A stretch of DNA of 64,000 nt from Bdellovibrionales bacterium (GTDB taxonomy: Bacteria; Bdellovibrionota; Bdellovibrionia; Bdellovibrionales; UBA1609): the NCBI GenBank assembly GCA_965205945.1, contig CBDBIB010000003.1, positions 672,394 to 736,393 of the forward strand, given 5' to 3'. Below the pieces are notes generated by a model, which saw only the letters and a list, made by a program, of their open reading frames with translations, had not been told where the DNA came from and did no database searches. The translations under genes were made by a program, and so were the position numbers. This document shows, in pieces, positions 2,935 through 15,579 of this stretch. Each line of letters starts with the position of its first letter. Positions within the stretch are counted from its first letter, which is position 1.

Positions 2935-2979
2935 AATGGACCTTATTTTGACTCTTTTTTGTCTATGTGTCACATCTTA

Positions 2980-3960
2980 ATGATGTCAAATGTACACTTT
3001 TTACCTATTCATGGTCGCCAGATGCCTCGTTTTGGTGGAATTAAAACCTTTTTTAGACTTCCTCATATTAAGAAAACAGATGAGCTTTTTAAAAACTTAG
3101 ATATTGCAATTTTTGGGGTTCCTTTTGATGGGGGGGTCTCTTATAGGCCTGGGGCTAGGTTTGCCCCATCTAAAATTAGAGAGGTTTCTTCATTAGGTAG
3201 AGGTTATCATTTTTCAAGAGATCTTACGGTTTTTGATAGTTTAAATGTAGCAGACACAGGGGACTGCTTAGTGACTCCTATGTCTGTTGAAAAAACATAT
3301 GAACTTATTAAAGCGTATACGGGAGAGCTTTTAGAAAAAAATAAAAAATTTATTTCAGTGGGCGGTGACCATTCAACAACGCTTGCTCATCTTAGGGCAT
3401 TAAAGGAAAAAAATGGAAAAGCAGTATCATTGCTTCATTTTGATGCCCATTTAGATACCTATGCTTCAGCATGGGGTTGTGAATATCACCATGGCGCTTT
3501 TGTAAGGCATGCTGTAAATGAGGGCTTGATTGATTCAAAAACCTCTATTCAAATTGGTATTAGAGGGTCTTTAGCTGGAAAATCTGACTTAGATTTTAAT
3601 GTAGAGCATGGCCTTTCATATATTACCGTAGACAACATTCGTTTAAAAACTTTAAGTCAAGTTATGAGTAAGATACATGGGCATTTAAAACAAGAGTCTG
3701 TATTTTTAAGCTTTGATATTGATTGCCTTGATCCAAGTTGTGCGCCAGGAACTGGAACTCCTGTTCATGGAGGTCTTACAGTGTATGAGGTTCAAAAGAT
3801 TTTTCAGGAGCTTAGAATTAAAAATTTAGTTGGAGCAGATATTGTAGAGGTTTGTCCTCCTTACGACACAGCAGAGATTACAGCTTTGGCAGCGGTAGAT
3901 GTTATGTTTGAAATTTTGTGCTTGTATAAAATTGAGATGAACAATGGTCATAAAATTTAA
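2980..3960 (+). CDS. speB: Ureohydrolase (agmatinase/guanidino-acid hydrolase family)
   Basis: MPRFGG..TFFRLP, GVPFD, RPGARFAP, GGDHS, DAHLD, SFDIDCLDP..APGTGTP; substrate uncertain. Confidence 0.85.
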   Translation: MMSNVHFLPIHGRQMPRFGGIKTFFRLPHIKKTDELFKNLDIAIFGVPFDGGVSYRPGARFAPSKIREVSSLGRGYHFSRDLTVFDSLNVADTGDCLVTPMSVEKTYELIKAYTGELLEKNKKFISVGGDHSTTLAHLRALKEKNGKAVSLLHFDAHLDTYASAWGCEYHHGAFVRHAVNEGLIDSKTSIQIGIRGSLAGKSDLDFNVEHGLSYITVDNIRLKTLSQVMSKIHGHLKQESVFLSFDIDCLDPSCAPGTGTPVHGGLTVYEVQKIFQELRIKNLVGADIVEVCPPYDTAEITALAAVDVMFEILCLYKIEMNNGHKI

Positions 3961-5395
3961 TAGAGTAAAAGAAAAGTTTCATCATGAAAATTGGCCGACC
4001 CCAGTTTTTTATGCTCCGGTATTTTTATACTATCTTTATAATTCACTAAAATTTAGAAAATTAAATTATTTTACCACTGCAAATCCAGGTCTAAAGGCAG
4101 GTGGAATGTGTGGTTTTTCAAAATTTGAATCATTTAAACTTCTTCCCTTAAAAGTTATCCCTACTACGATTTTATTAAATAATAAGCTTTATAGTGAGCA
4201 GCAGATTAAAGAGATGTTGAGTGAAAAAGGGTTAGAGTTTCCACTGGTGGTGAAGCCAGATCAAGGGGAGCGTGGGTTTTTGGTGTCTAAAGTAGATAAT
4301 CTAAGAGAGCTAGTAGAAACAATAAGTAATAAGACTTTAAAAATAAATTTTTTAATTCAAGAGTTTATTGACGAGCCTTTAGAGTTGGGTGTTTTTTTAA
4401 TAAGGCAAAATAAAGAGTGGAAGGTGTCTTCTATTACATCAAAGGATTTTTTAAGTGTTTTAGGTAATGGGGTAAAAACCATTAAACAGCTTATTGTAGA
4501 AGATAAGAGAGGTCGAAAATATTTTAATCCTTCTAAAATGAAGCTTGATCTTAAAAGAGTGCCTAAGCATAATGAAAGAGTTTTGCTTGAACCTATTGGT
4601 AATCATTGTAGAGGAACTAAGTTTGTAAATGAATGTGGTAGCATCACAAAAGAAACACATAAGGTTTTTAATAATTTTTTAAAAGATGTTAAGGGCATTA
4701 ATTATTGTAGATTGGATTTAAGGTCTTCATCTTGGCAAGCTCTTTATAAAGGTAGGTTTAAAATATTAGAAATTAATGGTGTTTCAGCAGAGCCTGGGCA
4801 TATTTATGATTCATCTGTATCTTTAATAAGAGCTTATAAGGATTTATTCTTTCATTGGAATGAAATGGCTTGTGTGGCTAAAGAGCAAGTCTTAAAAGGC
4901 GAAAAGGCAGAGAAGTTTTTTGATACCATGGGGTTTATAAGAACTCATATGAAACGAAAAAAAGAACTTCAAAGAGCTAAAGATTTAGTTATTGATGTTA
5001 TAGGCTGTAAAGGGTTAAATCTTTCTTTGGATCCGGAGGTGATCTTAAATAAATTTTCACAAGAAGAGTTGACGTTAAATCATAAATGTGTAGAAACCAC
5101 TTATGGTTATGAGAGAGCAGTGCTTTTTAAAAACAAAGATGTTGAGATTGTATTTTGCCATTGGCGTCCAGGAGATAAAAGTTCTGTACATCTACATCCA
5201 GGTGTAAACTGTTGGTTTAAATGCCTAAAAGGTGATATTGTTGAATTAAGATCAATGGGAAAAGAACAAAATTTTCTTACTAAAGGAGCTATAGGAAATA
5301 TTGACGACACAAAAGGCGCTCACCAAATGCTTAACATGTCTAATGAGTGCGCTTACTCAGTTCATATATATCAAACTAAAAAAGAGAATTCATGA
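3944..5395 (+). CDS. ATP-grasp carboxylate-amine ligase fused to a C-terminal cysteine dioxygenase (cupin) domain
   Basis: ATP-grasp motifs FPLVVKPD.G.RG, FLIQEFI..P.ELGV, RLDL, ILEING..AEP; C-terminal CDO motifs YER..W....S.VHLH....C, GAH and SVHIY. Confidence 0.8.
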   Translation: MVIKFNRVKEKFHHENWPTPVFYAPVFLYYLYNSLKFRKLNYFTTANPGLKAGGMCGFSKFESFKLLPLKVIPTTILLNNKLYSEQQIKEMLSEKGLEFPLVVKPDQGERGFLVSKVDNLRELVETISNKTLKINFLIQEFIDEPLELGVFLIRQNKEWKVSSITSKDFLSVLGNGVKTIKQLIVEDKRGRKYFNPSKMKLDLKRVPKHNERVLLEPIGNHCRGTKFVNECGSITKETHKVFNNFLKDVKGINYCRLDLRSSSWQALYKGRFKILEINGVSAEPGHIYDSSVSLIRAYKDLFFHWNEMACVAKEQVLKGEKAEKFFDTMGFIRTHMKRKKELQRAKDLVIDVIGCKGLNLSLDPEVILNKFSQEELTLNHKCVETTYGYERAVLFKNKDVEIVFCHWRPGDKSSVHLHPGVNCWFKCLKGDIVELRSMGKEQNFLTKGAIGNIDDTKGAHQMLNMSNECAYSVHIYQTKKENS

Positions 5396-6783
5396 AAGAT
5401 CTGCTTTTTCATATTCTGGAAAAAGCATTGCTTTTAAAAGAAAAACCTTTAGTAAGCTTAAAATCTCCCAAAAAACTTACGGAGTCTTTTGATCTAAGTT
5501 TAAAAGATGAAAAATATTTAGGCGATGCTAAAAATCTAATAGATTCTGTTTTTAAAAACTCTGTAAATACTCAAAACCCAAGATTCTTAAATCAGCTCTA
5601 CGGAGGGTCAACTCAAGAATCTTGGATAGGTGAATTTTTAGTTTCCATTTTAAATACTTCTATGGCTACATATGAAATAGCGCCGCTAGCAACTCTTATG
5701 GAAAAAGAATTGATTAAAAGTGTTAATAAAAAAGTGGGTTTTCCTAAAGTTGAAGGACTCATGGTTCCAGGTGGGAGTTATGCTAACATGCTCGGTCTTC
5801 AGTGTGCTAGATACACTCATAATAGAAAAATAAAAGAACAGGGGCTGTATGATTCTCCAAAATACAAGGTTTTTATTTCAAAGGAAGCTCATTATTCTTT
5901 TGAAAAAGCCTTAGGTCTTATGGGGCTAGGAACAAACTCTTTAGTTGAGGTGAAAATAAGCCTAGATAAGAAGATGCTTAGTTTAGATTTAGAGTTAAAA
6001 ATTAAGAAGTGTTTAGCTGAGGGTGGAGTGCCTCTTTGTGTTGTTTCAACTGCAGGAACAACTGTTTGGGGTTCATTTGATCCAATTAAAGAAATTGATG
6101 AAATTTGTAAGAAATTTCAAGTTTGGCACCATGTTGATGCTGCCTGGGGGGGGCTGGGTCTTTGGTCACATAGGGGAAAAGACCTTTTTAAAGGTCTTAA
6201 GCAAGTAGACTCTATTACTATTGATTTTCATAAACTTTTTGCATCTACGTTAACAAAGGGACTTTTTTTAACATCACATAAGAACGTGCTTAAAGGGGCT
6301 AATTCTGGTGGAGGAACAAAATATATCTTTCACAGTGCAGATGAAGAAGAAATTTCATATGATATAGGCACTTACGCAATTCAGTGTGGTCGAAAGGTAG
6401 ACTCTTTACCTGTATGGTTTCAGTGGAAAATGGGTGGAACTGATCAGTTTAAAAATAAAGCCTCCCACTTATATAAACTGGTAAACTGGACCACAGAATA
6501 TCTTTTAAAAGAAGCTAAAGAGTATAAATTGCAACTAAGTCCTGAATACATGAATATATGCTTTCAAATGCTTCCTGGAGACAACAAACTAGATGTAGGA
6601 GAGTTTAATAAAAGAGCGAGAGCTCTTTTATTAAAGCGTGGAAACTTTATGGTGAATTTTTCTAGCACAGAAGAAGATGGTGTTTTTTTTAGATTAGTAC
6701 TAAGTCACTGGGGACTTACACAAAATATTCTTGAAGAGTTTTTTATTGAGTTAAAAAATATTAAAGAAGAGCTTAAATTCTAG
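5392..6783 (+). CDS. Group II PLP-dependent decarboxylase, cysteine sulfinic acid decarboxylase/GAD-like
   Basis: PRFLNQL, NTSMATYEIAP, PGGS.AN, HYS, TAGTTV.G.FD, HVDAAWGG, DS...DFHK (PLP lysine), QCGRK.D; ATGA overlap with the upstream gene. Confidence 0.88.
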   Translation: MKDLLFHILEKALLLKEKPLVSLKSPKKLTESFDLSLKDEKYLGDAKNLIDSVFKNSVNTQNPRFLNQLYGGSTQESWIGEFLVSILNTSMATYEIAPLATLMEKELIKSVNKKVGFPKVEGLMVPGGSYANMLGLQCARYTHNRKIKEQGLYDSPKYKVFISKEAHYSFEKALGLMGLGTNSLVEVKISLDKKMLSLDLELKIKKCLAEGGVPLCVVSTAGTTVWGSFDPIKEIDEICKKFQVWHHVDAAWGGLGLWSHRGKDLFKGLKQVDSITIDFHKLFASTLTKGLFLTSHKNVLKGANSGGGTKYIFHSADEEEISYDIGTYAIQCGRKVDSLPVWFQWKMGGTDQFKNKASHLYKLVNWTTEYLLKEAKEYKLQLSPEYMNICFQMLPGDNKLDVGEFNKRARALLLKRGNFMVNFSSTEEDGVFFRLVLSHWGLTQNILEEFFIELKNIKEELKF

Positions 6784-6804
6784 TTCTTATGAGGAGAGTT
6801 TAAA

Positions 6805-7785
6805 TTGGAATTTTTTCCTGAATTAGATCAAATTGAAAAAGTAACAAAAAGGTTAAAACGTCAAGGAGTACCCTTTGAACGTAACACATTGGCTCAAATA
6901 GAGCATAAAGGTAAAAAATATCCAATACAGGGTTTTGTTATAGGATCAAAAAATCCAGAGGCCCCAACACTTGGTTTATATGGTAGTGTTCATGGTTTAG
7001 AGAAAATTGGAACACATGTTATTTTAAATTACTTAAACTCCCTTGCATTTAGATACTCTTTAAATTTATACATAAGAAAAAAATTTGAATCTTTTAGAAT
7101 TGTATCTATACCTATGGTGAACCCATATGGGGTAAAGCACAATAAAAGAGGCAATATGAATGGGGTTGATCTTATGAGAAACTCCCCAGTAAAAGCAATA
7201 GGCAAAACCTTACCATTTCTTTCAGGTCACCGAATATCTCCTAGAATTTGGTGGTACAGAGGTGAAGAGAATAAAATGGAGCAGGAGTCGTTGGCCCTCA
7301 TCAATTTTGTAAAAGAACAGATGTTTTCTTCAGAATTTTCTATGGCTCTAGATCTACATTCTGGTTTTGGATTAAGGGACAGGTTGTGGTATCCATACTC
7401 AAAAGCAGTAGGGATATTCCCCTTAGAGCATGAAGCTAGAAATCTAAAAAGAACAATGAAACTTATTAACCCCTTTCATATTTATAAGATTGAACCTCAA
7501 TCAGACTCTTATTTAATTCATGGTGATTTGTGGGATCATATGTTTGATTTACATTTTTTAGATTCTAAATACAAAGGGTTTTTTTTACCGTGGACTTTGG
7601 AGATGGGAAGTTGGAATTGGATTAAGAAAAATCCATTTCAAATTTTTTCACAAAAAGGCTGGTTTTATCCAATGAAACTACATAGGGTGAATCGAGTGAT
7701 GAGAAGGCATTGGTGGCTTTTAGACTTTTATACAAACTTTATTGCTAATGGTGGGATAGATTTAAGCTCTAGTAATTTTAAATAG
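6805..7785 (+). CDS. M14-family zinc carboxypeptidase-like protein
   Basis: HGLE zinc motif, NP.G, NGVDLMRN, DLHSG and LEMG; TTG start with GAGGAG RBS. Confidence 0.8.
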   Translation: MEFFPELDQIEKVTKRLKRQGVPFERNTLAQIEHKGKKYPIQGFVIGSKNPEAPTLGLYGSVHGLEKIGTHVILNYLNSLAFRYSLNLYIRKKFESFRIVSIPMVNPYGVKHNKRGNMNGVDLMRNSPVKAIGKTLPFLSGHRISPRIWWYRGEENKMEQESLALINFVKEQMFSSEFSMALDLHSGFGLRDRLWYPYSKAVGIFPLEHEARNLKRTMKLINPFHIYKIEPQSDSYLIHGDLWDHMFDLHFLDSKYKGFFLPWTLEMGSWNWIKKNPFQIFSQKGWFYPMKLHRVNRVMRRHWWLLDFYTNFIANGGIDLSSSNFK

Positions 7786-7939
7786 CAGAACAATTTTTTA
7801 ATAGAGTTTTTTTAAAAGTAATGAGAATAAGAATTTGTCTTAATAGATTATTTCATAATGTAGGTAAAAATTATTAAGAGAGTAAGAAATAAGCCTAAAT
7901 AGGCTTTTGTTGAACAAAACCTTGGAGGTTAAGATTAAT

Positions 7940-8773
7940 ATGGAAAAAGTAAAACTTTTACAAGGTGTGACAGCATATGAAGACTTAAATAAAGAGTTTT
8001 TAAAGGTAGTTGTTTTTCTCCATGGTGGAACTATTCCAAGCTGGTGTTATGATCATGTGTTTAAAAAACTTCAGGGCAAAAACTTTAGACTTATAAGGTA
8101 TGATATGTATGGCAGAGGGGAGTCAGATAGTCCAAATCTTAAATATAATAGAATTACATATTTACAACAGTTAGAAAACTTTTTAGAAAATTTAAAAATT
8201 AATAAGGTGCATGCTATTGTTGGATGTTCTTTTGGGGCTTCTTTAGGAACTTTGTTTAGCTTAAAAAATCCCCGCGCTGTTAAGAAAATTATTTATATTT
8301 CTCCAGCTATAAATTGGGTTAATAATATTAAATTGGCAAGAATATTTTTTATTCCTATTCTGGGTAGAATTTTGTTTTATACAGTAGGTAAAAAACTCAT
8401 TAGAAAAAGAGCATTAGGTTTTATGAAGTTTTTAAAAGATGAGGAATTTTTAGTTTATCAAACACTAATAGAAAAACAATTTCATATAAATAATCATGGT
8501 TTTTGGGATTCTCTTTATAAGCAACTTACAACAGATGCGTTAAAGAGTTATCTTGCTGAGTACAAAACTTTAGGGGGTTTGAACCAACATGATGTGAGCC
8601 TTATTTGGGGTATTGGTGATAAGGAAGTAAGTGCGGATGATATAAAAAATATTAAGCAGTATTTTCAAAATATTAATATAAAAAATATAAAGGGAGCTGG
8701 TCATGGTCTTATGGCAGAATTTCCTGAACTGGTGGCAGCGTTTGTTGTAGAGGCTTTAAAGGAGGCGCCTTAA
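7940..8773 (+). CDS. Alpha/beta-fold hydrolase
   Basis: FLHG, YDMYGRGES, nucleophile elbow GCSFG, WG..D and AGH; GGAGG upstream of ATG 7940. Confidence 0.85.
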   Translation: MEKVKLLQGVTAYEDLNKEFLKVVVFLHGGTIPSWCYDHVFKKLQGKNFRLIRYDMYGRGESDSPNLKYNRITYLQQLENFLENLKINKVHAIVGCSFGASLGTLFSLKNPRAVKKIIYISPAINWVNNIKLARIFFIPILGRILFYTVGKKLIRKRALGFMKFLKDEEFLVYQTLIEKQFHINNHGFWDSLYKQLTTDALKSYLAEYKTLGGLNQHDVSLIWGIGDKEVSADDIKNIKQYFQNINIKNIKGAGHGLMAEFPELVAAFVVEALKEAP

Positions 8774-14705: not shown

Positions 14706-15579
14706 GGGTGTGTCCTCATAAGAGAGTCCTGAAATCAATACATTTGCCCAGTTGAATGACTTAAAATGATGGGAAAAACTCGACTTATCGAGGTATTTTG
14801 CATGGTAAGAAAAGTTTTAACAGATTCTCTATGGGAGCAGCTTGAAGTGATTTTGGTTTCACATGGCTGCAGAAGATCAAAAAATAACCGTAATGTTATG
14901 GAGGCTATCCTGTGGAAGCTTCGAACAGGTGGTCCTTGGAGGGGATGTACCTGAAAAGTTTTGTCCTTGGAAAACAGCTTACAATCGGTTTAATCGATGG
15001 GCTGCAAAGGGCTTGTGGGATAATTTTTTTTTGCTTTACAAGAAGAAGTTGATACAGAGTGGGTGTCCATCGACGGAACTTACGTACGCGCTCATCAGCA
15101 TGCTAGTGGAGCTAGGCGTGGAGAGTACCGTGCAATTGGAAGGTCTGCAGGTGGAGCCACAACAAAAATACACATGGCCTGTGATGCCCATGGAAATCCG
15201 ATTTGTTTTGAAGTCACTGGGGGTCAAGTGCACGACAGTAAAGCTGCACCCAGCTTGATTGAACAGCTAGAGGCAGAAAGTTTACTGGCAGATAAAGGCT
15301 ATGACTCTGAACAGATCAGGCAACTAGCTCGAGATAAAAATATGAAGCCAATGATACCTCAAAGAAGAAACAGTAAGAAATTAAATCCAGAACTGGATAA
15401 AGATACTTACAAGGCCAGACACCAAGTGGAGAATGTCTTTGTAAGGCTTAAACACTTTAGAAGTGTGGCGATTCGCTTTGAAAAACTCGCTAGAAACTTT
15501 AGATCGATAATATCTTTAGCGTGCACTTTTGTGTGGCTAAAACTTAACTATGCTGGTCCAGGGTTATGAGGACACGCCC
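14706..15579 (+). mobile_element. IS5-family insertion sequence (IS427-like, 874 bp)
   Basis: Terminal IRs GGGTGTGTCCTCATAA / TTATGAGGACACGCCC (15/16 match), TA on both flanks, visibly higher GC than the surroundings, transposase inside. Confidence 0.92.
14802..15569 (+). pseudogene. IS5-family DDE transposase split over three frames
   Basis: LTD..W..L, WKLRTG.PWR/DVP, W.T.YNRF.RW, SIDGT.VRAHQHA, ADKGYD, RHQVENVF..LK.FR; shifts at G4 (14941-14944) and T9 (15024-15032). Confidence 0.85.

Follow-up and report, generated by a model that had tools for sequence, protein, structure and literature searches.

What can an ATP-grasp ligase be doing on the same polypeptide as a cysteine dioxygenase (CDO), and does their union disclose the compound on which the ligase acts? 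The question is raised by a gene in a stretch of 64,000 nucleotides of a Bdellovibrionales genome, which was analysed as a whole and is called the window here. The original prediction, made from the letters of the DNA, held that one uninterrupted frame encodes an ATP-grasp ligase, a basic helical linker and a CDO domain, and that this fusion ties a Ddl-like ligase family to sulfinate or taurine chemistry, suggesting a substrate for the family. No published description of an ATP-grasp–CDO fusion was found in titles or abstract openings. Other cupins have been described in the available parts of two papers, including SbzM homologues that are clustered with ATP-grasp genes in actinomycetes (PMC2922099, PMC9113183).

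One frame for a ligase and a dioxygenase

The frame is indeed uninterrupted over its 483 amino acids (Table 1). The predicted ATP-grasp motifs are found at residues 102-110 (VKPDQGERG), 138-141 (IQEF) and 274-289 (ILEINGVSAEPGHIYD). The N-terminal part is recognised by the Pfam model RimK over residues 60-145 (26.4 bits against a cut-off of 21), and the C-terminal part by Pfam CDO_I over residues 388-477 (29.8 bits against 23; 30.4 bits in the whole-genome profile scan). In an AlphaFold2 model of the fused protein, with a mean pLDDT of 94.1 and a pTM of 0.87, the two domains match the ATP-grasp and CDO folds by VIA-align, and a helix with a basic stretch sits between them, in agreement with the predicted linker.

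Table 1. The fused gene, its parts and its neighbours, in window positions
Feature	Position	Strand	Basis or details
Arginase-family ureohydrolase (agmatinase / guanidino-acid hydrolase clade)	2959..3960	+	Pfam Arginase 291 bits
Fused ORF: ATP-grasp ligase, basic helical linker, cysteine dioxygenase	3944..5395	+	483 aa; ATG start, TGA stop
ATP-grasp domain (residues 1 to ~320) with a conserved aromatic helix at its N-terminus (19-37)	3944..4903	+	Pfam RimK, Foldseek, VIA-align
Basic helical linker, residues 325-348	4916..4987	+	DSSP helix H325-348 in the model; sequence HMKRKKELQRAK
Cysteine dioxygenase domain, residues 351-481	4994..5386	+	Pfam CDO_I, alignment to human CDO chains, VIA-align
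CSAD/GADL1-type group II PLP decarboxylase, 463 aa	5392..6783	+	Pfam Pyridoxal_deC 218 bits
M14 zinc carboxypeptidase-like protein	6805..7785	+	Pfam Peptidase_M14 57.2 bits; DUF2817 31.7 bits

A joining of two separate genes by misassembly or sequencing error could be suspected from the low local read depth (about 4), from breaks in the unitigs near 4945-4974 in X1, the sole run that holds the stretch, and from the occurrence of split forms in relatives. This suspicion is already contradicted by the conservation of the fusion, and its probability is practically negligible. The same fused frame is found in 20 further full-length protein clusters from several sources (42-83% identity) and, besides the window, at four further genomic loci (L001, L002, L003 and L085); frames of 483-499 amino acids without internal stops also occur in three other genomes of the genus (G078, G082 and G170). 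The linker is conserved among the fused proteins and modelled as a confident helix, and GC content is even over the junction (0.31-0.33). The proposed check of reads across the junction agrees but adds little: Logan contigs of X1 span 3800-5700 with zero differences, at that same low depth and in what is probably the source sample. X2 holds three short pieces of the stretch and X3 none, and no RNA run was listed as holding window positions 4600-5500.

In three related Bdellovibrionales genomes (L004, L005 and L006), the ATP-grasp ligase and the CDO are encoded by adjacent genes. As fusion or as neighbours, the pair persists among ligases whose identity ranges from 83% to about 38%. For the split proteins of L004, complex prediction gave 0.00 against a mark of 0.32, which is no evidence either way. 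Together with a syntenic locus in G140, the five fused and three split loci make up the nine that were compared; all of them lie beside mutY in relatives of one order, and they are therefore orthologous and not independent.

The enzymes of the locus and their relatives

Judged by its residues, the CDO is an Arg-type enzyme with an intact domain. All catalytic residues (rat numbering) have their counterparts in an alignment to human CDO chains: Y389 and R391 pair with Y58 and R60, the three histidines H416, H418 and H460 with H86, H88 and H140, C423 with C93, and S472, H474 and Y476 with S153, H155 and Y157. Seven of them (R391, H416, H418, C423, H460, H474 and Y476) are invariant in 21/21 fused proteins and are also kept in the three split CDOs, and Y389 is conserved in at least 90%. 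Residues 351-479 superpose on B. subtilis CDO 4qm9 with a VIA-align Z of 15.6 (127 aligned, rmsd 2.5) and on rat CDO with Z 13.5-13.8; Foldseek matches the domain to 4z82 with E 8e-10, and the fold corresponds to that of the B. subtilis, rat and human enzymes. Profile score, three-histidine iron site, Y58/R60 pair, Ser-His-Tyr motif and cupin fold all place the domain in the CDO_I family.

According to the available part of PMC8050391, an Arg at position 60 marks cysteine-specific CDOs and a Gln marks 3-mercaptopropionate dioxygenases; the same part describes a Cys-Tyr cross-link that is formed in eukaryotic CDOs, with bacterial forms using an unmodified Tyr. The fused CDO carries the two residues of this potential Cys-Tyr pair, otherwise described for eukaryotic CDOs. 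A Cys equivalent to C93 is present in 127 of the 146 closest matches to the CDO domain. A metagenome scan with a narrower CDO alignment returned 24 loci, among which L085 is the single fused form; the remaining 23 hold distantly related mini-CDOs (25-39% identity) with no ATP-grasp or decarboxylase in their flanks, many of the contigs being short.

The decarboxylase follows the ligase and CDO genes directly in all nine loci, G140 included, and is the only Pyridoxal_deC gene in the genome. It has the group II PLP fold, with human CSAD (2jis, E 3e-81) as its best solved relative, and the D-F-H-K that holds its PLP lysine aligns with N-P-H-K of that enzyme. The specificity triad is Y/S/A in 8/8 orthologues, against F/S/Y in CSAD, Y/S/Y in GADL1 and S/N/F in GAD67. 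A CSAD substrate motif F/W-X19-S-X-Y is quoted in the available part of a preprint (bioRxiv 10.64898/2026.08.27.747329). All eight orthologues have Y-X19-S-X-A instead, in which the aromatic residue and the Ser fit and the third residue is Ala. At the first two positions the triad, as read from sequence, is that of CSAD and GADL1 and not that of GAD; the enzyme thus appears to resemble the CSAD/GADL1 group, while the motif does not assign it to CSAD. With Ala in place of Tyr at the third position, it might act on another substrate, such as the aspartate of GADL1.

The ligase–CDO gene begins at 3944, before the upstream gene has ended at 3960, and its stop shares an ATGA at 5392-5395 with the start of the decarboxylase gene; these overlaps indicate one operon. 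The upstream ureohydrolase, whose true start is probably an ATG at about 2980, scores 204.2 bits with the agmatinase model TIGR01230 (cut-off 174.3). Among solved structures it is closest to guanidinobutyrase 3nio (E 2.9e-67), proclavaminate amidinohydrolase and guanidinopropionase, and agmatinases rank lower. One of three arginase-family genes in the genome, it lies upstream in 5/5 fused loci and in 0/4 split or CDO-less ones, and we regard it as accessory to the operon of the fused type. The M14 carboxypeptidase-like gene is possibly associated with the operon: it stands directly behind the decarboxylase gene in 4/5 fused loci, in 3/3 split loci it lies 5 to 5.5 kb further down, and it is preceded by a GGAGG box of its own and starts with TTG. 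The alpha/beta-hydrolase gene that lies further on, at 7907-8773, was rejected as a member of the module, with no match in L001-L006.

The N-terminal half belongs to the ATP-grasp superfamily by profile and fold, RimK being the sole ATP-grasp model to exceed its cut-off; all 18 listed NCBIfam models for ATP-grasp or related proteins are far under theirs. Membership in the RimK/LysX group (TIGR00768, 30.1 bits against 143.4; LysX, 25 against 275.6) is not supported, nor is membership among the cyanophycin synthetases (TIGR02068, 26 bits against 850 over residues 79-279). Structurally, residues 20-314 superpose best on the G domain of cyanophycin synthetase 7wae (VIA-align Z 15.6 over model residues 21-310, 265 aligned, rmsd 4.6; Foldseek E 3.9e-11), and of that protein the G-domain part alone aligns (chain residues 163-481). 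GshF 3ln6 is a close neighbour as well (Z 13.3). Ddl ATP-grasp domains match too but rank below cyanophycin synthetase, and with 16.7 bits against 245.65 for TIGR01205 and 14.9 against 24 for Pfam Dala_Dala_lig_C, the label Ddl-like turns out to be a loose one. A sequence search of the PDB with the ATP-grasp half returned no chain at E <= 0.01.

In the databases, 586 matches to the ligase were found at E <= 0.001, mostly named 'hypothetical protein' at the source; where other names are given, there is one 'RimK-like ATP-grasp domain' and one 'D-alanine--D-alanine ligase'. The ESM Atlas returned only unnamed or generic ATP-grasp clusters, and precomputed matches to TTL (PF03133) exist for members P0026, P0029 and P0103. 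Over 117 family members, CDO-linked and stand-alone, 56 positions are at least 90% conserved; they include K104 (in VKPD), R256, D258, E276 and N278 (in ILEING), which, by analogy with other ATP-grasp enzymes, may correspond to the ATP-binding Lys and the Mg2+-binding Asp and Glu-x-Asn residues. The CDO-linked ligases form one clade nested within the family tree, in which fused and split types are sister clades (SH-aLRT 97). Seven ligase positions are specific to this clade, and five of them have changed from hydrophobic to polar or charged (Y/W/F>H14, A>N41, F>K192, V>E323 and I>T328), which would fit a more polar or anionic substrate.

The wider family has partners of another kind. Stand-alone forms are accompanied by genes for a LysE exporter (43/74 loci), a DinB-like protein (42/74) and TANGO2 (23/74), and also by YceI, DoxX and YHS genes, and the genome itself encodes a VTT/DedA–ATP-grasp paralogue at another locus. 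That paralogue, the fusions of alpha/beta-hydrolase, VTT and ATP-grasp domains, the frequent LysE genes and the conserved Trp/Tyr/Phe-rich N-terminal helix are leads to a possible role near the membrane. As a transmembrane anchor, the N-terminal helix is unsupported (hydropathy 0.5-1.1 over 19 residues, unlike a classical transmembrane helix). Nor does the hydrolase encoded at 7907-8773 match the hydrolase domain of the fusions significantly (best E 1.6).

No CDO_I match was found in G140, a genome of 99% completeness. There the ligase has lost 15 of the 56 universal positions, keeping 41 where the 117 others keep at least 51 (median 56), and the losses include D258>E, E276>D, N278>S and the GNHCRG loop. 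From its sequence this ligase looks inactive, while the decarboxylase gene next to it still encodes Y/S/A. Such degeneration of a ligase without a CDO is seen in this one genome only.

Candidate reaction and its rivals

The reading that we favour, tentatively and with a probability of about 0.45, is that cysteine is converted via cysteine sulfinate to hypotaurine and that the ATP-grasp enzyme links a product of this pathway, most likely the amine of hypotaurine, to a carboxylate as an amide. The iron-dependent Arg-type CDO domain, with its complete active site, would oxidise free L-cysteine to cysteine sulfinate. The translationally coupled CSAD/GADL1-type decarboxylase would turn this into hypotaurine, a step suggested by homology and strict adjacency. 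In the last and least certain step, the N-terminal domain may activate a carboxylate as an acyl phosphate and join it to the amine from the pathway. This amine would most likely be hypotaurine, which, lacking a carboxylate, can act only as nucleophile. An N-acyl- or peptidyl-hypotaurine would be formed, which could oxidise to the taurine form, and the ureohydrolase and the M14 peptidase may be accessory, supplying the partner or trimming the product.

The predicted tie between the ligase and cysteine sulfinate or hypotaurine chemistry is strengthened for this clade by the complete Arg-type CDO, the split loci with their adjacent genes, the constant presence of the decarboxylase and the degenerate ligase motifs where the CDO is missing. 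Its extension to the whole ligase family is so far not supported. No CDO or decarboxylase was found within the fetched flanks of 74 stand-alone loci, four of the five tested genomes titled as Cytophagales genera gave no CDO_I match, and the CDO-linked forms are but one clade of the family. Since the 56 conserved ligase positions, putative substrate loops included, are common to CDO-free stand-alone forms, the chemistry of the ligase may involve no sulfinate. The adjacency of ligase and decarboxylase in G140 also fits a link that is independent of the CDO.

The ligase might instead take cysteine sulfinate as amine acceptor and receive its carboxylate donor from a GADL1-like decarboxylase, which might make beta-alanine from aspartate, for instance. 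The result would be a dipeptide, perhaps beta-alanyl-cysteine sulfinate, that the M14 carboxypeptidase could cleave. Consecutive steps are often found on fused domains, and here the ligase would receive the CDO product directly. Carnosine synthase is likewise an ATP-grasp enzyme, the first triad position is the Tyr of GADL1 and not the Phe of CSAD, and a free C-terminal carboxylate would suit the M14 enzyme encoded in most fused loci. GADL1 is needed for beta-alanine and carnosine peptides, as stated in the available part of PMC7367687. We nevertheless consider this scheme unlikely: a CDO beside a CSAD-type decarboxylase constitutes the known two-step route to hypotaurine, for which cysteine sulfinate is the simplest decarboxylase substrate, and the genome has no second group II decarboxylase. 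G140, where ligase and decarboxylase stay together without CDO, could speak for it, yet with a ligase that looks inactive this locus shows no working pair. Distinctly unlikely is also that the halves are functionally independent, the ATP-grasp domain catalysing the same reaction as stand-alone and VTT-fused members and the CDO and decarboxylase merely disposing of or converting cysteine. The fusion would then reflect co-regulation or an accident at a gene boundary, fixed in one lineage. This would agree with the many positions common to stand-alone forms against only seven that are clade-specific, with the absence of sulfur-amino-acid enzymes among the neighbours of those forms (LysE, DinB-like, TANGO2), and with the VTT/DedA-fused paralogue elsewhere in the genome. 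Against it stand the persistence of the arrangement over the whole range of ligase identity, the apparently fixed orientation of the two domains suggested by the pTM of the model, and the decay of the ligase in the sole genome where a CDO was not found.

Very unlikely, in our estimation, is a C-terminal tagging of peptides or proteins with cysteine sulfinate or hypotaurine, in the manner of RimK, tubulin-tyrosine ligase or cyanophycin synthetase, with the M14 carboxypeptidase as eraser. Eukaryotes do pair TTL-type ligases with M14 carboxypeptidases. The M14 gene in the operon, the above-threshold RimK model, the TTL matches in three family members and the closest structure, a cyanophycin synthetase domain that extends the C-terminus of a peptide, would all be in keeping with such a pair; but the loci have no conserved gene that could encode the substrate, in the split loci the M14 gene stands outside the operon, and the score falls far below the curated RimK cut-off. 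Highly doubtful, too, is the idea that the ATP-grasp family consists of membrane-proximal ligases which use a small amine as a cap for a lipid that bears a carboxyl group or for an exported metabolite; in the CDO-linked clade this cap would be hypotaurine, supplied locally by the fused CDO and the decarboxylase. If it were true, predatory bacteria would contain a previously unrecognised sulfino- or sulfono-lipid or conjugate.

How bacteria turn cysteine into hypotaurine or taurine is barely explored, and we know of no enzyme that conjugates hypotaurine by an ATP-grasp mechanism. The ligase–CDO protein and its decarboxylase point to a hypotaurine-derived compound that has not been described. 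If the favoured pathway exists, bacterial organosulfur metabolism would gain a step, an ATP-grasp family of mostly hypothetical proteins would have its first functional handle, and bacteria would be known to use a CDO with the Cys-Tyr pair, a trait described for eukaryotes. The fate of prey-derived cysteine in small-genome Bdellovibrionales might be explained as well, for instance in detoxification or as an antioxidant or osmolyte.

Comparison with known systems

With CDO type I, exemplified by mammalian CDO1 and B. subtilis YubC/CdoA, the fused dioxygenase has in common the cupin fold, the three-histidine site, the Y58/R60 clamp that binds the cysteine carboxylate, and the S-H-Y motif. It differs in being the C-terminal domain of a 483-residue ligase fusion and, from the bacterial enzymes as described, in having a Cys that corresponds to C93. 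With about 130 amino acids it is as short as its closest relatives, which are mini-CDOs of 130-140.

The ligase has its best structural neighbours in the cyanophycin synthetase G domain and GshF, yet identity to them is only 13-19%. Unlike cyanophycin synthetase it has no M or N domain, and an N-terminal segment HHENWP..FY.P..YY is specific to its family as compared with both. The stand-alone proteins of about 340 amino acids, mostly titled Bacteroidota, belong to that family, with 37-44% identity and the 56 conserved positions in common; further relatives are the VTT/DedA–ATP-grasp fusions of about 530 amino acids and those with an additional alpha/beta-hydrolase (877-890). A membrane-capping role would have its counterpart in aminoacyl-lipid systems, with their logic of synthase, flippase and hydrolase.

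A bacterial taurine or hypotaurine pathway of CDO and CSAD was reportedly described by Agnello and co-workers in 2013 (ACS Chem Biol 8:2264). In that pathway, as here, the CDO gene stands beside a gene for a CSAD-family decarboxylase, and the aromatic-X19-Ser part of the motif is retained; the third residue, in contrast, is Ala and not Tyr in the orthologues studied here, and an ATP-grasp ligase is joined to the CDO or encoded beside it, so that one more step, driven by ATP, is implied. For such a step the animal GADL1/CSAD and carnosine synthase couple offers the same logic, the product of a CSAD-family decarboxylase, a non-proteinogenic amine or acid, being condensed to a small amide by an ATP-grasp enzyme, and animal GADL1 has the first triad Tyr in common with our decarboxylase. 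The animal genes, however, are unlinked and involve no CDO fusion.

One reading frame for two enzyme domains

As in the original prediction, an ATP-grasp ligase and a cysteine dioxygenase (CDO) are joined in one uninterrupted frame of 483 aa, and Pfam, an AlphaFold2 model, VIA-align and Foldseek all concur on the two halves. In Pfam, residues 60-145 match RimK-type ATP-grasp (26.4 bits against a cut-off of 21) and residues 388-477 match CDO_I (29.8 bits against 23). The structural model, built from a 115-row alignment (mean pLDDT 94.1, pTM 0.87), has the corresponding folds, separated by a helix at residues 325-348 (HMKRKKELQRAK). With VIA-align, residues 20-314 superpose on the G (ATP-grasp) domain of cyanophycin synthetase (7wae; Z 15.6, 265 aligned, rmsd 4.6) and residues 351-479 on the CDO of B. 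subtilis (4qm9; Z 15.6, 127 aligned, rmsd 2.5); the rat and human CDOs give Z 13.1-13.8.

The fusion is not an artefact. A homologue search covering 5.8 billion clustered proteins gave 586 matches (E <= 0.001), and the 120 matches listed include, in addition to the query, 20 full-length clusters (97-100% coverage, 470-499 aa, 42-83% identity), which stem from several sources. The fused frame is also carried by three loci whose record titles name Bdellovibrionales MAGs (L001, L002, L003), by a metagenome locus (L085) and by the three other sampled genomes of the window's genus (G078, G082, G170). The GC content shows no shift at the junction. Reads had been named as a check from the outset; the contigs of the sole run holding this stretch show no difference over it, which carries little weight at a depth of about 4 and in a run that probably derives from the source sample itself.

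Residue-level alignment to human CDO chains pairs H416, H418 and H460 with the iron site (H86, H88 and H140), Y389 and R391 with the carboxylate clamp (Y58 and R60), and S472, H474 and Y476 with the S-H-Y motif (S153, H155 and Y157), while C423 corresponds to C93, the partner of Y157 in the Cys-Tyr pair. By this alignment, the CDO half has a complete set of predicted catalytic residues. Across 21 fused proteins, R391, H416, H418, C423, H460, H474 and Y476 never vary, and conservation of Y389 is 90% or higher. According to PMC8050391, R60 marks the cysteine-specific "Arg-type" CDOs, Gln-type enzymes being 3-mercaptopropionate dioxygenases, and the C93-Y157 cross-link is assigned to eukaryotic CDOs, bacterial ones using an unmodified Tyr. 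Because of this assignment, the invariant Cys deserves attention: it gives a bacterial CDO a candidate Cys-Tyr pair of eukaryotic likeness. An exhaustive HMMER search with the CDO domain found 650 relatives (E <= 0.001), the closest being "mini" CDOs of 130-140 aa. A Cys at the C93 position occurs in 127 of the best 146 of these 650 matches.

CDO domains also occur in other architectures. One genome (G049) encodes a 660-aa protein with an N-terminal CDO_I and a C-terminal SAM-dependent methyltransferase domain, which has Gly in place of C93. Neighbouring genes encode an Asp/Glu racemase-family protein, a histone-deacetylase-family protein and a HAD hydrolase, and similar frames of 655-674 aa are found in G065, G077 and G125. 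The database proteins P0124-P0138 and others (600-920 aa) contain three to four tandem CDO_I domains, P0124 having four CDO stretches in 814 aa (362 bits).

The operon and its decarboxylase

Coordinates of the operon genes and of other features (window positions unless a contig or locus is named)
Feature	Position	Strand	Remark
Arginase-family ureohydrolase	2959-3960		end overlaps start of fusion; = C3:675493-676311
ATP-grasp-CDO fusion	3944-5395	+	single ORF, 483 aa, ATG start, TGA stop
Group II PLP decarboxylase	5392-6783		start overlaps stop of fusion (ATGA)
M14 peptidase-like protein	6805-7785		own ribosome-binding site
Second arginase-family gene	C3:545168-546073		same genome
Third arginase-family gene	C3:165822-166628		same genome
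VTT/DedA-ATP-grasp paralogue	L082:4543-6147		contig C1, outside the window
CDO-methyltransferase fusion	L083:3488-5470	-	genome G049
Two overlapping ORFs	14863-15569	+	131 and 168 aa; by eye, resembling a frameshift-split transposase

The decarboxylase is the sole Pyridoxal_deC gene of the genome. Among solved structures, human cysteine sulfinic acid decarboxylase (CSAD; E 3e-81) is closest to it, ahead of GAD67, mouse CSAD and GADL1. The preprint bioRxiv 10.64898/2026.08.27.747329 quotes F/W-X19-S-X-Y as the CSAD substrate motif. By direct alignment, the substrate triad is F/S/Y in CSAD, Y/S/Y in GADL1, S/N/F in GAD67 and Y/S/A in the window decarboxylase, whose third position is thus Ala where both CSAD and GADL1 have Tyr; Y/S/A is found in all eight orthologues. 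On account of these relatives and this triad, the enzyme would be of the CSAD/GADL1 type, with short acidic amino acids as substrates and an unusual residue at the third position.

The ureohydrolase scores above the agmatinase equivalog cut-off (204.2 bits vs 174.3). Despite this, its best solved relatives are guanidinobutyrase, proclavaminate amidinohydrolase and guanidinopropionase, placing the operon copy nearest to guanidino-acid hydrolases among solved structures. Arginase-family genes number three in the 1.87-Mb genome, which also encodes a SpeA-like decarboxylase.

At 6781-6805, the decarboxylase and M14 genes lie in one reading frame with one TAG and 21 nt between them; a genome profile search reported an 801-aa "open frame" for the M14 match, and the TAG is nonetheless present. 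Since their frames differ in L001, the shared frame looks incidental.

Linkage to CDO and the wider ligase family

Nine loci were compared, and all adjoin mutY except L002, whose contig begins at the ureohydrolase. The five fused loci (the window, L001, L002, L003 and L085) all have the order ureohydrolase, fusion, decarboxylase, with the M14 gene next in four. In the three split loci (L004, L005 and L006), separate genes encode the ATP-grasp protein (326-328 aa), a CDO (164-178 aa) that keeps all CDO residues, and the decarboxylase. A gap of 15-20 nt separates the first two genes in L004 and L006, and their listed ORFs overlap in L005; the M14 gene is 5 to 5.5 kb further on. The gene after the decarboxylase in L004 encodes a glutathione peroxidase. 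Being orthologous within one order, the nine loci are not independent observations. In a quick IQ-TREE of the ATP-grasp domain (119 rows), the 21 fused forms make up one clade (SH-aLRT 99). Its sister is a group of ten 328-aa split-type forms (SH-aLRT 99), of which three were checked for CDO adjacency, and the joint branch (97) is nested among stand-alone forms.

These stand-alone relatives number in the hundreds, are about 340 aa long, have mostly Bacteroidota record titles and are 37-44% identical to the window protein; where a source name is given, it is mostly "hypothetical protein". The fetched flanks of 74 such loci contain no decarboxylase, CDO, ureohydrolase or M14 gene, and four of the five genomes tested with this form have no CDO_I match. 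Recurrent neighbours are a LysE-type exporter (43/74), a DinB-like protein (42/74), TANGO2 (23/74), YceI (20/74), DoxX (18/74) and a YHS protein (17/74). The same-strand order DinB-like protein, ATP-grasp, LysE exporter recurs, often with DoxX, YHS, YceI and TANGO2, and may represent a stress- or thiol-related cluster.

The window ligase stays below every curated ATP-grasp family cut-off, and a PDB sequence search with this half found no chain. At 56 positions, conservation is at least 90% in CDO-linked as well as stand-alone forms, and only seven positions separate the two groups, five of them changing from hydrophobic to polar or charged. Both groups therefore probably have a common core chemistry, with modestly shifted specificity.

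Other family members carry membrane domains. A 534-aa paralogue in the same genome has a VTT/DedA domain fused in front of ATP-grasp; after it come a YHS-domain protein and a 649-aa Rieske-TPP-enzyme fusion. Such VTT/DedA-ATP-grasp proteins, about 530 aa long, are common in the order. Triple fusions of alpha/beta-hydrolase, VTT domain and ATP-grasp (P0267-P0270, 877-890 aa) suggest a membrane or lipid-related role of the family.

CDO_I occurs in 15 of 201 genomes of the order, including 4/4 of the window's genus and 3/4 of genus g19. The genome search of G140 (g19, 99% complete) gave no CDO_I match, and at its syntenic locus (L084) mutY, ATP-grasp, decarboxylase and glutathione peroxidase follow one another, the CDO being absent. 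Its ATP-grasp protein retains 41 of the 56 conserved positions (minimum 51 and median 56 in 117 others): E216, N220, H221, C222, R223 and E283 are lost, and D258, E276 and N278 are changed. The decarboxylase retains Y/S/A.

A possible pathway and its relation to known systems

The domain identities, the complete catalytic residue sets, the operon structure and the pattern of fusion, splitting and adjacency are observed. On established enzymology, the CDO domain would turn free cysteine into cysteine sulfinate, from which the decarboxylase would produce hypotaurine. In the least secure step, the ATP-grasp domain would condense a pathway amine with a carboxylate. Lacking a carboxylate that could be activated, hypotaurine is the favoured nucleophile. 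In rival readings, the ligase would take cysteine sulfinate directly, the decarboxylase supplying beta-alanine for a carnosine-like product, or would tag a peptide C-terminus, with the M14 protein as eraser. Alternatively, the two halves may be independent; the decay of the G140 ligase along with the absence of CDO, in one genome, would be expected of a ligase that relies on the CDO.

In the literature searched, no description of an ATP-grasp-CDO fusion was found. A bacterial CDO together with CSAD is already known, and so are ATP-grasp amide ligases. New, as judged from sequence, are the fused architecture, a bacterial CDO with a candidate Cys-Tyr pair, and the implied extra ATP-dependent step.
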